Shown here: in pieces, positions 21,296 through 46,635 of the stretch
How positions within the stretch are numbered: the stretch's first letter is position 1
Layout of the letters: each line of letters opens with the position of its first letter
Translations under genes and position numbers: made by a program
Notes under the pieces: model-generated
Databases searched by the model: none
The model's input: the letters and a program-made list of their open reading frames with translations, nothing else
What the model was told of the DNA's origin: nothing
NCBI GenBank assembly: GCA_013204395.1
Contig: JABMNZ010000002.1
Coordinates: 1-58,951 of the forward strand
Origin: Parcubacteria group bacterium
Lineage (GTDB): Bacteria; Patescibacteriota; Patescibacteriia; UBA9934; GWF2-40-263
Reading direction: 5' to 3'
DNA length: 58,951 nucleotides

Positions 21296-21486
21296 AATTG
21301 AATTTGCTGTGGCTGGGTGCCTCAAGGCATTCCTCGACCGTCCTCGTCGGACTGCGGGCGGGTCGAGAAATACCTTGTGCCACCTGTGGTTAACTAATGG
21401 TTGGTAGTGGTGATGGGGGTGAAAAAATTCGTGGCGTCGAGCCACTTATTTTTTTTTGCAAAGAGCAATCACTAAAACTTGTCACT

Positions 21487-21520
21487 AAAAAGCAAAGCCG
21501 ACCCTTTTGTTGGGGGCCGG
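21487..21520 (-). terminator. Rho-independent terminator for minus-strand transcript
   Basis: CCGGCCC-loop-GGGTCGG then CTTTGCTTTTT. Confidence 0.55.
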
Positions 21521-22047
21521 TCGTCGTGGGGTCGAGCTGAGCTCGAGAGAAACGCAAGTGATCGGGGGTTGGTGGTGTTTGGTGGAGCTCGCCCGGGCCC
21601 GGATGCTTTGCTGCATCCGGGACACCGGGGTCGTCGCTCTCCGAACTAGCCTCCCATACCTCACCTCCTCCCTGCGTTACCTCGTCCACAACGATGCTTT
21701 GCCGGCCTCGAAGGCTGGCGGACGTCTTCATCGTCTTCAGGTCGTCACGAATGCGCCGTTGCGCTTATGTACGTCCTGATGGTGGGTTGATCTGACGAAT
21801 CAGCCTCTTTGTTCACCGTTATCGGTGTCATTGAAGTCGACAGTCTGATCTCGCAGGGAGGGTATGACTCTCTTCACGTGTTGGTTTCTCCGTTTTTTGG
21901 CCGAGTTTGGCCGATGGAAGTGATGGACTGATTCCTGCACTTCCAGATTCTCCTTACGATCTGCTCTCAATGGGTTCTAGCCTCCGAACATGGTGGGCTC
22001 CGGAACAGGCGAGACCGGGATGGTCCGCCAAAACTGCAGAACGGAGA

Positions 22048-22076
22048 AGACTACCATGAATCGTCCATTGTGTCAA
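22048..22076 (-). promoter_or_regulatory. sigma70 promoter (leftward of divergent pair)
   Basis: TTGACA-17nt-TAGTCT. Confidence 0.65.
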
Positions 22077-22194
22077 TGGTTCACGGACAAATAGATGTTG
22101 AAGGTCAAAAACAGCAAATTATACTGTGTTCAGAAAGTTTGAACAGAATTCTTTGCTAAATTTAGTTATATCATTCAATCTTGACCAATATGCC

Positions 22195-22223
22195 TTGACA
22201 CTTAGTTTATAAGATGATAGTCT
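22195..22223 (+). promoter_or_regulatory. sigma70 promoter (rightward of divergent pair)
   Basis: TTGACA-17nt-TAGTCT. Confidence 0.7.
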
Positions 22224-22656
22224 TCTGCCTTGCCTGATGTCAGCCCTGGCCGACAGAAGGTAAACCAACCACTTCACCAGAGAGAGGTTAATCGAGGAGA
22301 TAACATCTCTCTGGTGAGGAGGCCATTGTCAGTGATACTTGTCCTGATGATGAAATCTGGACTGTTCGTAGATAACGTCCCCACTGCTTACTCAGAAAAT
22401 GCACGAGAGTATCGTGCAAAGGACAACTGTCTGGCGACACTCCGGCTCTGAATCAATAGATTCAGTAGTAAATATCTCTAGGGGAGATAAACACAATTGA
22501 ACGGGGCGTTTTGCCCCACGGATTTGGTCCTGTGCCTGAGTTGTACCCCAGCAACTCAGCGTGCGGAGCCAATTCTGTGGGGCGACAGGTCGCTCTGGCC
22601 CATGCTTTGTGGAGACGTGCCACAAACTCGCCCTAGGGCGGGAAGAGGTCAACAGG

Positions 22657-23235
22657 ACTTCTCGGGGGATGTTATAAGAGCATCATTCCTCGGTAAGCCT
22701 TGGCGAAAGTCAGGGAAGACATCGGTTGTTATCGATGTTCCACTGCCCGTTGTTCGGGAATAGTGGCTAAGGGGAAGAACAGGTGAGTGGAGCCTGCGCC
22801 TTAGAAAATAGTTATTGCTCTTTACCACACAGACCTCGTTCGTGGTGCCTAGAGATGGGTAACACGACTGTACTCGGCGCTCAGAGTCGTCGATCCCCAG
22901 GTGGGAAAAGTGTGTGCGTAGGAGCCGCTGTCGCGGAAGCTACAATCACAAAGGGTGTAAACGAGGCACCCATACTCTAAACTCCGGCACAAAAGGATGT
23001 GTCGGTCGACTGAAGTCGGTGCGTGTGTTTCATCCTTAGTTGGGTGTGCACATGAAGGGAATCCGGATCCCATCATTCCTTGCGCCCTGCACGGAGACGT
23101 GACCAGGGATAAATCCGGCGGGGGGTCGTCGGTTGAGTGTTAAAAAACTCAGTGTTGTTACTCAGGAACCAACGGGGAGCTGAGTAATAAAAGGGCGGTC
23201 GAAAAGCCTAAATACCCGCCTACGTCGCTAGAAGT
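22657..23235 (+). ncRNA. Candidate large structured ncRNA, unit A (unknown family)
   Basis: No credible ORF; consecutive helices conserved with compensatory changes in unit B. Confidence 0.6.
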
Positions 23236-23240
23236 CTAAA

Positions 23241-23825
23241 ACTTCTCGGGGATGCATCAGAGCATCATTCCTCGGTACGCCTTGGCCAGAAGCTAAGGAA
23301 GACATCGGTCATGATCGGTGTTTCACCCCCAAGTGGGTGGCTAGTGCGACGAGTCCACGGAGCTCGTGCATTAGAAAATGGTTGTTCTTTCCAAACCCAC
23401 CACAAACTTGTTTTCCGAGAGGAAAGCAAAGTAACCCCGGCGAAGAGTGAACTCGTCGGTTGGCCACAGGCCAGTGCATCCGTTCAGGATCTCTTTGGAG
23501 AAGCTGTTCAGATGAAACGTGGGTGGAGATGAAACACTCCTCCGTTCAGTTGTTGTTGAGAAACAATGGCTACGCAAATCCGGCTGGGTGAAGTCGGTTG
23601 GCCCTTAGGTCAGTGCCTTGAACTAGGAACCGCCACGGCGGGAGCTAGTAAAAGGAAAGGCGAGATTAACGGACGCCAAATCACCCATCTTCACTGCAGC
23701 GCGAGGTCAAATAACCTCCTCCCTGCGTACGTCCACGCTGACGTCGCGCTGCGGGACCATAAGGCTCACAAGGCTTTCATGGTCCCTATTCTCCCCCTTG
23801 TCATTTATTACTCTGGTAATGAAGT
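23241..23825 (+). ncRNA. Candidate large structured ncRNA, unit B (homolog of unit A)
   Basis: Shares ACTTCTCGGGG(G)ATG, GAGCATCATTCCTCGGTA, GGAAGACATCGGT, TTAGAAAAT, TGAAGTCGGT and AGGAACC..GGGAGCT with A in the same order; 3' end approximate. Confidence 0.6.
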
Positions 23826-23867
23826 GGCAAGAGGGAGAACCATGTCCCACAAACCAAGGAGGTACAC

Positions 23868-24224
23868 ATGAACACTCTCAATTTGACGCAGCACCTGGCC
23901 AGCGAGCCGCAGATCGAAGCCGGTGTGGTGGAGCCCAAGGACAAGGCGGCGGTGCAAGCCCTGCTGACGTTCACGGAGCTGCCCAGCCAGCAGACGCTCC
24001 TTCAGCGTGCAAGCGCACTGGCCACCCTGGCCAAGGAGTCCGACTGCCAGTCCGCCATGATCGGCGGCGCCCCCTACTTCATGGGGCACCTGGAGCAGGC
24101 TCTGCGAGGAGTCGGTGTCCGTCCGCTCTACGCTTACTCGGAGCGTCGCAGCGTGGACAACGTGCAGGAGGATGGATCGGTCCGCAAGGTCGCCGTGTTC
24201 GTCCACCTCGGGTTCGTGGGGTAA
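23868..24224 (+). CDS. Small alpha/beta hypothetical protein (NLTQH...IGGAPY...RKVAVFVHLGF)
   Basis: AAGGAGGT SD; strong C/G codon bias. Confidence 0.85.
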   Translation: MNTLNLTQHLASEPQIEAGVVEPKDKAAVQALLTFTELPSQQTLLQRASALATLAKESDCQSAMIGGAPYFMGHLEQALRGVGVRPLYAYSERRSVDNVQEDGSVRKVAVFVHLGFVG

Positions 24225-24450
24225 GAGCCCGCATGGTGTGATCCGCAATCACTAAGCACAACGGGGAAACCTGGGGGACGCTACGCAAACTGGGGTCCTT
24301 TACTGCAAAGCTTTCTAGGGTTAGCTCTGCTGAAAGGACAATAAATAAAAAAAACTTATGTATACACTTGCTTATTTCACTTCATCTATTCTCATGTTTG
24401 GTCTTGTACTCGCAGCATAAAATATGAATTCACATTCGGTACTGGGGCAT

Positions 24451-24487
24451 CTTCCTGAGTTTTCGAAAATATCGAATGTTCAGGAAG
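24451..24487. repeat. 37-bp imperfect palindrome, copy 1
   Basis: CTTCCTGAGTTTTCGAAAATATCGAATGTTCAGGAAG. Confidence 0.85.
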
Positions 24488-24543
24488 CACCGTGAGTCTG
24501 GACACTCATGATGTATCACATCCAATCCTTTAAGGAGGAACCC

Positions 24544-25047
24544 ATGTCCAAGCCCCTGACCATCGCCCGCGGTCTGCGTCGTGCCAAGCAGGTCCAAGGT
24601 CGTGTCGCCGAGATGCGCGCGCGCCTGCTGACCACCACCAGCTGGCAGAAGGACCAGAAGCCCGAGTTCACCTTCGACGAGACGCTCGCGTCCTTCGACG
24701 CCGCTGTCGACGAGTTGGTGAGCCTGCGCACCGCAATCGCGCGTGCCAATGCCACCGCCACGGTGCAGTTCGGTGATCGTTCGATCACGCTCGCCGAGGC
24801 CATCCGGCAGCAGGCCGAGCTCAAGGGCCGCATCACTCTCTTCCAGTCCTTGGGACTGCGGCAGGGTGAGGAGCGGGTGCACGTCGGCTACGACGAGCGC
24901 TCCCGTCCGACCCACGAGGTCGTGGTGTACGAGGCTGTCTGGACCGAGCGCCAGCGCGCCGAGCAGATCGAAGGGCTTCGCGCCCGGCTCGAGACCCTGG
25001 GCGAGCTGCTCGAGGAGGCCAACCACACCACCCGCCTGGAGCTCTAG
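24544..25047 (+). CDS. DIP1984-like alpha-helical coiled-coil protein
   Basis: AAGGAGG SD; ITLAEAIRQQAELKGRI and LLEEANHTTRLEL resemble the DIP1984 family. Confidence 0.7.
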   Translation: MSKPLTIARGLRRAKQVQGRVAEMRARLLTTTSWQKDQKPEFTFDETLASFDAAVDELVSLRTAIARANATATVQFGDRSITLAEAIRQQAELKGRITLFQSLGLRQGEERVHVGYDERSRPTHEVVVYEAVWTERQRAEQIEGLRARLETLGELLEEANHTTRLEL

Positions 25048-25055
25048 CTTCAGCG

Positions 25056-25347
25056 CGCGGTGGGCGCCTATCGCTTGGGGCGGGGAGATTCCAACGGATG
25101 TGAGACTGATCTGAACCTAGGGCTTGTCCTAGGGGAGGTGAAGTAGGTCGCCAACCAATTTCCGACCCACCGGTTGGAGGATGGTTACCACGCGCAAGCG
25201 TGATAATGCACAAAGATTTCGATCGCGATGCCGATGCTCAGGGTTTAAGGCTTAAATGCTAAAGACTCAAGGCTAAGGATTAAAGATTCAGCGATCAGGA
25301 CTTGTGAAGACCACTTACGTCCCGCGGGCTCCCCGTCCCTCACCGCG
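25056..25347 (+). ncRNA. Candidate structured 3' ncRNA with heptamer tract
   Basis: Nested closing helices CGCGGTG/CACCGCG and CGGGGAG/CTCCCCG; GCAA-tetraloop hairpin at 25189-25202. Confidence 0.55.
25242..25304 (+). repeat. Degenerate 7-nt tandem repeat, 9 units
   Basis: GGTTTAA GGCTTAA ATGCTAA AGACTCA AGGCTAA GGATTAA AGATTCA GCGATCA GGACTTG. Confidence 0.85.
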
Positions 25348-25386
25348 ATACCACGAAGGGACCACACAACTTACGCCTGGGGTACT

Positions 25387-25423
25387 CTTCCTGAGTTTTC
25401 GACAATTTCGAGTGTTCAGGAAG
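25387..25423. repeat. 37-bp imperfect palindrome, copy 2 (followed by GGTTTTTT)
   Basis: CTTCCTGAGTTTTCGACAATTTCGAGTGTTCAGGAAG; 34/37 identical to copy 1. Confidence 0.85.
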
Positions 25424-25461
25424 GGTTTTTTGAACAGAACTTAGAATGACAAGGGAGACAG

Positions 25462-26004: not shown

Positions 26005-26140
26005 TTCAGACTTTTTAGGAGGAGACGGTCGGGGAGCAATTCTCGACACGGTGAATGTTACGCATTCACCACGCTCCAGATGTTCACGATTTACTCGTGG
26101 GTGCCTGGAGCGTTTTGGTTTGCTGTATAATGTGATTGCT

Positions 26141-27010
26141 ATGAATATGAATAAAACTGTACTTATCGTGCCTCCAAATGATGCGGAGGCCATGATGATC
26201 AAAACACTGGCAGAAAAGCTTGGATTACCTACCATTGTTAGCAAGCAGCTTCACGGAGCTTCTTTAGACAAGGGCCATGACTATGTGCTAGCTGTGAAGG
26301 AGGGAGAATATACTCAGGTGATAGTTATTGAAATGCCTGGCGAGAAGTCCGAGAAGCAACTTCGTTCAATGGGTGTTGAGGTAACGATTATCGATCATCA
26401 TCATTACACGGGCCTCGATCGCGCTCATGGTCCAGATGGTGAGATTTTAAAAAGTTCTTTGGAACAGTTTTTGGCGATGTTTAAGATTACAGATCGTCAG
26501 ATAAAGGGTTGGGGGCTAGACCCCCTTATGGTGAGAGGAATTGGCATTCAGGATCGAGGATATGTTTGGTCTCTTCAAGACGAGGGCTATACCAAGTCAC
26601 AGATCGCAAAAGTAATGACTTATGCAGATGAACTCACAGCGCATCTACACAACCCTAAGACCGAGGCGCGAAAGTTGCAGCTGGCACAAGCGGCTTGGGA
26701 TCGAAGTATAAAGTGGAAGGAATTTTATATCGTATCAACGCGTGCAAATTTACAGCTCCGCCCACGTCTGTCAAAGATAGTCGCAGACGAGCGTGGTAAA
26801 CCAACACCTTTGATCATTGTTGAGCATGGTAGGGGACTTATCTATGTACAAGAATCCCCTTATGCATTACATTTGTTCGAGCGTTTTGGCGGCTTCACTT
26901 TTGGTCTCGATAGAAATTGGGGTCATAAGAATGAGCCTGGGGGCGTAAAGATAAATCTTCGAGATGTAAAAAAAGCCATTAATACCGTAAGACACGATTC
27001 GTCATTATGA
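26141..27010 (+). CDS. Conserved hypothetical protein, DHH-like (NDAE, IDHH, SSLEQ, DRGY)
   Basis: Motif recognition; start after TATAAT at 26126. Confidence 0.7.
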   Translation: MNMNKTVLIVPPNDAEAMMIKTLAEKLGLPTIVSKQLHGASLDKGHDYVLAVKEGEYTQVIVIEMPGEKSEKQLRSMGVEVTIIDHHHYTGLDRAHGPDGEILKSSLEQFLAMFKITDRQIKGWGLDPLMVRGIGIQDRGYVWSLQDEGYTKSQIAKVMTYADELTAHLHNPKTEARKLQLAQAAWDRSIKWKEFYIVSTRANLQLRPRLSKIVADERGKPTPLIIVEHGRGLIYVQESPYALHLFERFGGFTFGLDRNWGHKNEPGGVKINLRDVKKAINTVRHDSSL

Positions 27011-46083: not shown

Positions 46084-46137
46084 GGGAGAGGGGGGTGACA
46101 AAACACACGGCATCGAGCCGTGTGTTTTGTCGTCCTA

Positions 46138-46601
46138 GGAGCTATCTGTAAGCCGAATTTTGTCTGCTTGTGGCGACTGCCGCAAGGAGATGACAATTTA
46201 TCTAGCCCAGCTATTGCTAGCTGGATCGTGCGAGCTACCAAATTTGCTCTTACACCAGAAAGGGTTTACCACGCCTCCGTGTCGCCACGGGGCGAGACGT
46301 GTAGCCATCCTAACCGATCCCGCGAAGCGGGACCCCGAACCAACTGGCGTCGGGGCTGATCAGGGGACACCACATCACTTTTCACTTTTCACCTCACCCA
46401 AGGGTGAGGTTAGTATTGTCTCTGTGGCACTTTCCCTAGGCTTTGATCATGATGCTCGGGAGCAATATTCCAGCTCCTGAATTTCAGAACTTATACCTGG
46501 TTGTCGTTAACAACTTTCTTTTTCGATGCCCCTTACGAGACATCGGGTGTTCGGACTTTCCTCGAACTGGCTCTCACCAGCCCGTAGCCATCCGATAGTC
46601 C
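46138..46601 (-). ncRNA. rnpB: RNase P RNA
   Basis: GAGGAAAGTCC, GGGAAAGTGCCACAGA, GGTAAACCC, ACAAAATTCGGCTTA; P1 pairs the two ends. Confidence 0.93.
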
Positions 46602-46635
46602 TAAGACGGAGAGAAGATACCAAACAAGAGGGCAA

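Follow-up and report, generated by a model that had tools for sequence, protein, structure and literature searches.

In a 58,951-nucleotide contig of a Parcubacteria group bacterium (JABMNZ010000002.1; this whole stretch of DNA is called the window here), a small gene of the DUF6847/DIP1984 type is followed directly by a structured RNA of about 290 nt (25056-25347), in which nested helices enclose a tract of phased heptamers, here called the rail. We report that this RNA represents a family without a catalogue entry that is genetically tied to the DUF6847 protein family: an RNA of like plan lies directly 3' of the stop codon in 24 of the 25 distinct loci that we compared, over protein identities from 70 to about 26% and in a remote branch as well. 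According to searches of Rfam, PADLOC, protein folds and the literature, neither the gene nor the RNA belongs to a described system. As the first-pass annotation had proposed, it is plausible that an oligomer of the DUF6847 protein binds the RNA encoded 3' of its own gene, an arrangement to which the TRAP and HutP sites are similar in logic only.

DUF6847/DIP1984 is a large, uncharacterised family for which a crystal structure has been available since 2009. Word-indexed and exhaustive protein searches returned 202 clusters with E<=1e-30, and 1292 when the threshold was relaxed to E<=1e-3 (clusters at 50% identity that match the branch profile). A dedicated and conserved RNA with a strict counting device makes this orphan family a testable particle. 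If our explanation is true, the pair would form a new class among the few protein-RNA pairs to which bacteria devote a specific protein and RNA, such as SmpB-tmRNA, Ro60-Y RNA and CsrA-CsrB, and would be a new example of repeated short motifs that set the stoichiometry of an assembly. Genome-reduced candidate-phyla bacteria, phage tRNA arrays and one RtcB operon all have the pair, a distribution which suggests that it helps to protect the machinery of translation in times of conflict.

Linkage of Gene and RNA

The 25 loci, which represent candidate-phyla bacteria, other bacteria and phages, were taken from Patescibacteria and Candidatus Uhrbacteria chromosomes, IMG/VR phage contigs, distant metagenomic loci and the remote branch, which hhalign joins to the window's branch with a probability of 99.3%. 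In most of them the closing helix begins 4-33 nt past the stop codon, and a scan of the window found no promoter-like site between gene and RNA. The comparison supports a single conserved, co-oriented unit of gene and RNA without room for a promoter between them, and the two are probably co-transcribed. The first-pass annotation had proposed looking downstream of homologous genes for a 7-nt period and a shared fold, and both recur in the 24 RNA-bearing loci. Rfam 15 gave no match in 25048-25440 even at E<=5, nor in the RNAs of 15 related loci, and a metagenome scan with a conserved 15-mer gave chance matches only, with the tract in none of those loci.

Evidence for Selection at the RNA Level

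The + strand of 25048-25440 (393 nt) folds with -154.5 kcal/mol at a z score of -5.06, compared with -2.3 for the - strand, and the gene strand folds more stably than its complement in 15 of 16 loci. The two nested helices that had been read from the window by the first-pass annotation, 25056-62/25341-47 and 25081-87/25329-35, are indeed exact complements. The second of these (CGGGGAG with CTCCCCG) is part of an 11-bp closing helix, P1, and the outer helix region takes alternative outer pairs in the energy-minimum fold.

The arms of P1 are divergent between loci and complementary within each locus, as seen in the pairs GGGGCGGGGAG/CTCCCCGTCCC, TGGGCGAGGTGGAA/TTTCACCTCGTCCA, GTGGTGACGGCGCG/CGCGCCGTCACCGC and TCGGGAAGAGGGGCGG/CCGCCCTTCTTCCTGA. 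We scored ungapped helices and permuted the partners, because duplexfold on the long arms is uninformative, the GC-rich arms pairing with anything. The mean score was 30.7 for cognate arms and 23.7 +/- 1.1 for permuted partners, and none of 20,000 permutations was as high (p<5e-5). An RNAalifold analysis of six sequences found compensatory changes on both sides of P1 pairs, and G-U pairs occur in P1 across the loci. The helix that closes the rail gives weaker evidence than P1 (cognate -7.6 versus permuted -6.2 kcal/mol, p 0.007). It should be mentioned that the small helices are out of register in the MAFFT columns, and that helix searches in each locus take the place of formal pair counts. 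Inside P1, a second helix (P1b) has other complementary sequences at the equivalent place in two relatives (L001 and L002), and the hairpins of the 5' domain are equally placed in all homologues, while their number and sequence vary. The features of the window's locus are listed in Table 1.

Table 1. Features of the gene-RNA locus (positions in the window)
Feature	Positions	Strand	Basis or remarks
First copy of the 38-nt palindrome, at the upstream edge of the gene-RNA cassette	24450..24487	+	No U-run
Shine-Dalgarno AAGGAGG	24532..24538	+	Strong site, 5 nt ahead of ATG; read from sequence
DUF6847/DIP1984-like gene	24544..25047	+	167 aa, GC3 0.88; Pfam PF20935 E 1.2e-10
Outer helix, 5' strand CGCGGTG	25056..25062	+	Begins 9 nt past the stop; exact complement of 25341-25347
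P1 closing helix, 5' strand GGGGCGGGGAG	25077..25087	+	11 bp with 25329-25339
P1b helix, 5' strand GGAUGUGAG	25096..25104	+	9 bp with 25314-25322
5' domain, four hairpins (25116-25133, 25137-25152, 25153-25186, 25189-25202)	25116..25202	+	Minimum-energy fold
Rail-closing helix, 5' strand CACAA.G	25209..25215	+	Pairs with 25301-25306
Three hexamers CGAUCG CGAUGC CGAUGC	25220..25237	+	Invariant G every 6 nt, 18 aligned RNAs
Nine rail units (eight heptamers and one octamer), register xxxUNAR	25235..25298	+	Periodicity, alignment
Rail units in order: TGCTCAG GGTTTAAG GCTTAAA TGCTAAA GACTCAA GGCTAAG GATTAAA GATTCAG CGATCAG	25235..25298	+	
Terminal unit GACUUGUG = rail-closing helix, 3' strand	25299..25306	+	(G/C)ACUUGU end kept in most loci
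P1b helix, 3' strand CUUACGUCC	25314..25322	+	Fold
P1 closing helix, 3' strand CUCCCCGUCCC	25329..25339	+	One G-U pair
Outer helix, 3' strand CACCGCG	25341..25347	+	Exact complement of 25056-25062
Intrinsic terminator, 13-bp + 5-bp hairpin, then U6 run	25384..25432	+	Holds palindrome copy 2 (25386-25423)

The Heptamer Rail

The heptamer tract is located 190 nt past the stop codon and 80 nt short of the intrinsic terminator with which the gene-RNA unit ends. The identity at lag 7 is 0.55 in 25240-25310; none of 20,000 shuffles was as high at that lag, and the fraction of shuffles that reached this value at any lag from 2 to 20 was 0.0002. In a sliding scan of the whole window, the highest periodicity at lags 4-11 was found at 25235-25305 (maximum at 25238). 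Tandem Repeats Finder reported nothing for the tract, to which it is blind because only three of the seven positions are conserved. The first-pass annotation had described nine units with T at 25246, 53, 60, 67, 74, 81, 88, 95 and 25302, and this register is present in the sequence, as are the eight units said to contain TAA or TCA, five of them beginning with TAA and three with TCA. Its view of the tract as non-coding also holds, with TAA at 25246, 25253 and 25260 covering the three frames; a coding tract was rejected, since there are stops in all frames and no credible open reading frame (ORF) spans it.

The same phase is seen across the loci. In an alignment of 18 RNAs, an A that recurs every 7 nt is invariant, as is a G that recurs three times at 6-nt intervals ahead of it. 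Of the 178 units counted over 19 loci, 84% have U as their fourth base, 98% have A as the sixth and 93% have a purine as the seventh, with almost no constraint on the rest; 85% have a length of exactly 7 nt, and there are 9-12 units per RNA, most often 10. The flanks show a preference by clade, with G-R-Y-U-N-A-R in the window's clade and N-N-U-N-A-G-C in the Uhrbacteria and phages, and the remote branch has the pattern x-x-x-N-C-A-A. In relatives with 95-97% identity (contigs from seawater runs), all five listed substitutions within the tract fall at variable positions or exchange a purine for a purine. In other words, the period is kept while the sequence drifts, as the first-pass annotation had read from one locus. 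RNAalifold found no conserved pair within the hexamer-heptamer region, and the rail, a loop of about 90 nt that a short helix closes, is probably single-stranded. It thus bears the hallmarks of multi-site docking: (i) strict phase; (ii) minimal unit sequence; (iii) narrow copy number; (iv) no conserved pairing; and (v) a closed loop. The narrow copy number (9-12) supports this view, as it is what would be expected for a repeated docking partner.

Other periodic tracts were noticed in the loci. In many IMG/VR contigs (L158-L277), 6-10 heptamers of the form NNCAAGC lead straight into a TTGACA box, behind which stands a box resembling TATAAT; these arrays (e.g., L160 855-892 and L172 531-568) resemble phased arrays upstream of promoters. 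Further 7-nt periodic tracts are found in candidate-phyla loci (L142 2882-2957; L133 4919-4985; L140 410-485; L007 9033-9100) and include heptamer hairpins (GTAATGN versus CATTACN) and one run of UGAAG-type units.

The DUF6847 Protein

The first-pass annotation had called the gene DIP1984-like, and this assignment is confirmed by Pfam, in which PF20935 (DUF6847) is matched at 42 bits against a cut-off of 27, over positions 3-141 of the 141 in the profile, and by the fold. The protein does not reach the cut-off of the NCBIfam DIP1984 family NF038048 (47.8 versus 70 bits), and represents a divergent branch outside the named subfamily. An AlphaFold model built from 21 homologues (pLDDT 96.2) has four long helices and two beta-hairpins. 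The sole Foldseek match in the PDB at E<=0.001 is DIP1984 itself (3KDQ; probability 1.00, TM 0.62-0.70), a structure with four chains that phmmer also finds weakly among the PDB sequences, and the matches of the model in BFVD are exclusively uncharacterised phage proteins. No PADLOC model matches the protein, tblastn gave no match in cultured phages and plasmids, and a literature search found no paper on DIP1984 or DUF6847, its matches having come via the annotation word septicolysin.

The GC content at third codon positions (GC3) is 0.88 in the DUF6847 gene and 0.84 in the upstream gene for a 118-aa protein, compared with 0.33-0.45 in neighbouring genes, and the DUF6847 value is 0.72-0.96 at every locus (the window and 15 further loci), notwithstanding a host G+C content of 0.40-0.63. 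A link of this bias with high expression finds no support in the other high-GC3 genes of the window, which lack Pfam matches and do not include housekeeping genes. U-N-A-R is depleted in the ORF relative to synonymous shuffles (z -4.2), from which no conclusion follows because the TA dinucleotide is generally depleted as well (z -4.9).

Genomic Context

Eleven chromosomal loci share one order: a gene for a TrmB-like regulator, an ORF-poor stretch of 1-1.6 kb, the DUF6847 gene and the RNA, with a conserved protein of about 300 aa downstream of the RNA in eight of them. The identity of TrmB declines in parallel with that of DUF6847, which suggests vertical inheritance. In phage contigs, the pair lies between the tail tube gene and the baseplate hub gene, in the order tail tube, DUF6847 gene, RNA and 3-4 adjoining tRNA genes. 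tRNA genes flank the pair in L157 and L154, a tmRNA gene stands directly 3' of the RNA in L007, and the gene of a CCA-adding enzyme is located upstream of TrmB in L152. In one of the 25 loci (L278), the pair resides in an RtcB operon with the order RlaP, DUF6847 gene, RNA, RtcB; RlaP and RtcB are RNA-repair enzymes that act on cleaved tRNA (PMC12776372, PMC7824862). These contexts, a minority of those compared, point more weakly to tRNA or RNA repair. A role in phage defence, which had been envisaged in the first-pass annotation, finds no support in PADLOC, and the neighbourhoods point towards tRNA and RNA repair instead.

A 38-nt palindrome, CTTCCTGAG...TTCAGGAAG, has two copies in the window (24450-24487 and 25386-25423), where 0 are expected by chance. 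The 95-97% identical relatives diverge just outside these copies, at 24410 and at 25430-25434, and the gene-RNA unit therefore has the behaviour of a cassette that can be exchanged. Judged by eye, the sequence CTTCCTGAG...GTTCAGGAAG of this palindrome is unlike the core RYYYAAC / GTTRRRY of the attC sites in integron gene cassettes, and no systematic search for integrases was made. In L006, the palindrome is present ahead of each of three successive small ORFs (481-520, 1399-1437 and 2028-2065).

Comparison with Known Systems

The closest parallels are found in two RNA-binding regulators of Bacillus. In the trp leader, 11 G/UAG (NAG) triplets wrap the 11-subunit ring of TRAP (PMC1474065, PMC3184956). 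The rail likewise has about ten phased NAG-like triplets in otherwise variable, probably single-stranded RNA, with a copy number within the range of ring subunits; it differs in its period (7 nt rather than 5-6), in its core U-N-A-R, in its place in a closed loop of a 3' RNA rather than in a 5' leader attenuator, and in a protein outside the TRAP family and fold. In the hut terminator RNA of Bacillus subtilis, HutP recognizes NAG triplets four bases apart, that is, every 7 nt (PMC2425495), so that the period of NAG-type triplets is the same and HutP is itself an oligomeric reader. HutP recognizes its units in two groups of three within a regulatory region at the 5' end, whereas 9-12 units and three hexamers stand behind the gene here, and the DUF6847 protein has no sequence or fold similarity to HutP. 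TRAP and HutP structures are absent from the Foldseek matches, and Pfam gives DUF6847 only. Phased NAG-like triplets at constant spacing without conserved pairing, as in TRAP/HutP-type targets, are present in the tract, whereas the overlap with a terminator or antiterminator in a 5' leader is absent. TRAP and HutP are thus an analogy and not a case of membership, because their proteins are unrelated to DUF6847 and the location differs.

Ro60 (Rsr) and the bacterial Y RNAs, encoded in rsr-yrlBA-rtcBA operons (PMC4201824, PMC7790460), offer a parallel of another kind: a dedicated gene pair for a protein and a structured RNA, which occurs in phages. Residence in an RtcB operon is seen here in at least one case, L278, and not at the window's own locus. 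In contrast, a TROVE domain (Pfam, NCBIfam), a Y RNA and a tRNA-like module are all absent here, Rfam gives no match, and Y RNAs have nothing that corresponds to the rail. CsrB/RsmZ, the partners of CsrA, also present many copies of a short protein-binding motif on one RNA, but the GGA motifs of CsrB lie irregularly spaced in hairpin loops, on an RNA without linkage to csrA. In our family the spacing is strictly phased, there is no conserved GGA, and the gene continues at its 3' end into the RNA. The type III toxin-antitoxin systems (ToxIN) likewise combine a protein gene with a repetitive RNA in a compact module on mobile elements, but the ToxI repeats of about 34-36 nt form pseudoknots and stand upstream of the toxin gene, whereas the units here are of 7 nt and lie downstream; DUF6847 lacks the ToxN/AbiQ fold and has no PADLOC match. 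On anatomical grounds we rejected a type III toxin-antitoxin system, a sponge of the CsrB kind, a retron and a tRNA-like RNA.

A Proposed Docking Rail and Its Alternatives

The explanation that we prefer, to which we give nearly but not quite an even chance, is that of one transcription unit with an uncatalogued RNA, the rail of which would dock a fixed number of protein copies, with DUF6847 as the likeliest partner. The unit would consist of the Shine-Dalgarno sequence, the 167-aa gene, the RNA and the intrinsic terminator (25384-25432). The nested closing helices hold the hairpin domain and a probably single-stranded loop of about 90 nt with three hexamers and about ten heptamers, presenting U-N-A-purine in a fixed phase. 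This loop may dock a fixed number of copies (about 10-12, or half that number of dimers) of a protein that recognizes RNA by its sequence, most probably the co-encoded DUF6847 protein, and the outcome would be a defined ribonucleoprotein particle. From the neighbourhoods, such a particle might act on tRNA or damaged RNA in cells and phages, like the Ro60-Y RNA platform. A bolder version, which we regard as speculative and unlikely in its entirety, is that DUF6847 and the rail RNAs constitute a widespread, undescribed ribonucleoprotein of bacteria and phages: the hexamers and heptamers of the rail would count out about 10-12 protomers in a ring or filament, the particle would serve surveillance or repair of tRNA or RNA damage as a functional analogue of Ro60-Y RNA, and the Y-U-N-A-R units may be decoys or sensors for nucleases directed at the anticodon loop.

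Several observations weigh against the docking explanation. The tracts were divided into units partly by hand. Thermodynamic folding of single sequences pairs parts of the rail and leaves it no more open than the remainder (unpaired probability 0.37, versus 0.34 elsewhere), and most loci have a small hairpin at unit 3-4, so that the tract departs from simple repetition. When viral contigs were scanned for six AGC units set 7 nt apart, a different class of array was returned, with DUF6847 in none of 120 loci; this other class is common in viral contigs without DUF6847, so heptamer arrays are by themselves unspecific. The window's own locus has no tRNA or repair genes nearby, its conserved neighbours being TrmB and a 319-aa protein. 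In the exceptional locus (L279), the gene has no RNA directly behind it, the next ORF beginning 2 nt past the stop codon; this gene is located within an array of 22 tRNA genes. The DUF6847 protein has no known RNA-binding domain in Pfam or Foldseek.

The last point leads to the rival view that the rail is read by another repeated partner, such as an RNA-binding protein of the host or of a phage, an enzyme or nuclease that acts on tRNA, or the ribosome, with DUF6847 acting, for example, as a chaperone, enzyme or adaptor. The tRNA genes and RNA-repair enzymes in the contexts could then be the real clients, and the Y-U-N-A-R unit matches the anticodon loop in length and has a similar pattern. We nevertheless consider this view unlikely: DUF6847 is the sole gene that adjoins the RNA in all 24 RNA-bearing loci, the other neighbours vary, and the copies in phages keep gene and RNA together. 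As the only constant neighbour of the RNA, DUF6847 is the best candidate for the binder. Alternatively, the rail might be a structural device of RNA alone, its phased adenosines making tertiary contacts (of A-minor or U-turn type) with its own helices or with other copies, and the protein helping only in folding or being unrelated to the rail; self-assembling large RNAs are a precedent. Apart from a single invariant adenosine (98%), each unit conserves little, the rail lies in a closed loop beside a helical domain, and the small hairpin at unit 3-4 is position-specific, all of which would suit such a device. This reading seems improbable to us, since no covariation links the rail with any other part, and the rail stays constant next to a domain in which the number and length of the hairpins differ widely.

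The location between stop codon and terminator, with a closing helix that begins within reach of the ribosome at the stop in many loci, would also be compatible with a 3'-UTR (untranslated region) element acting in cis, as an mRNA stabiliser or as a control of termination and read-through into downstream cassettes, without any particle. A conserved and ornate architecture of about 290 nt with a phase-locked rail far exceeds the needs of a stabiliser or attenuator, and the downstream genes are not conserved, a tRNA often being next in phages and tRNA arrays; the proposal is distinctly improbable. Finally, the repeats may work as DNA (iterons, recombination sites or upstream promoter arrays), with the helices as mere inverted repeats. 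NNCAAGC heptamer arrays that abut TTGACA boxes are common in viral contigs, and palindromes bracket a cassette outside which the relatives diverge. An action as RNA is favoured by the unequal folding of the two strands (15 of 16 loci) and by G-U pairing within P1, the orientation and the distance from the stop codon are fixed, the tract is not followed by a -10 box, and only three of the seven positions are conserved. Such a DNA-level role is therefore highly improbable. The docking rail thus stays the explanation that we prefer.

Other Observations

In the window, 2.5 kb without credible ORFs (21300-23860) separate the TrmB gene from the gene of the 118-aa protein; this stretch holds two units about 583 nt apart (22674-22743 versus 23256-23326) and a TTGACA-type promoter near 22193, and the equivalent place in relatives has 0.8-1.6 kb that is poor in ORFs. 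The 118-aa protein (23868-24224) has weak matches to Csx20, all below the cut-off (NCBIfam E 1.9e-5, PADLOC E 7e-5), and the position of its gene is filled by unrelated small genes in relatives (e.g., one of 103 aa in L002). The 319-aa protein (26051-27010) is conserved downstream in eight loci with 47-70% identity and has no Pfam match; by eye only, its stretch IIDHHHY recalls motif III of the DHH phosphoesterases.

The phage tRNA clusters (L149 4435-4669 and L144 4437-4744) contain odd ARAGORN calls, including a tRNA-Ile with the anticodon AAT and one "anticodon" of two bases. In L007 (1-3391), an isoleucyl-tRNA synthetase is split over two ORFs, with a match to a histidine phosphatase domain within the synthetase domain. 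The window also encodes a bacterial class A RNase P RNA on the - strand (46132-46603), which exceeds the model by two large insertions, one of 53 nt and one of 73 nt.

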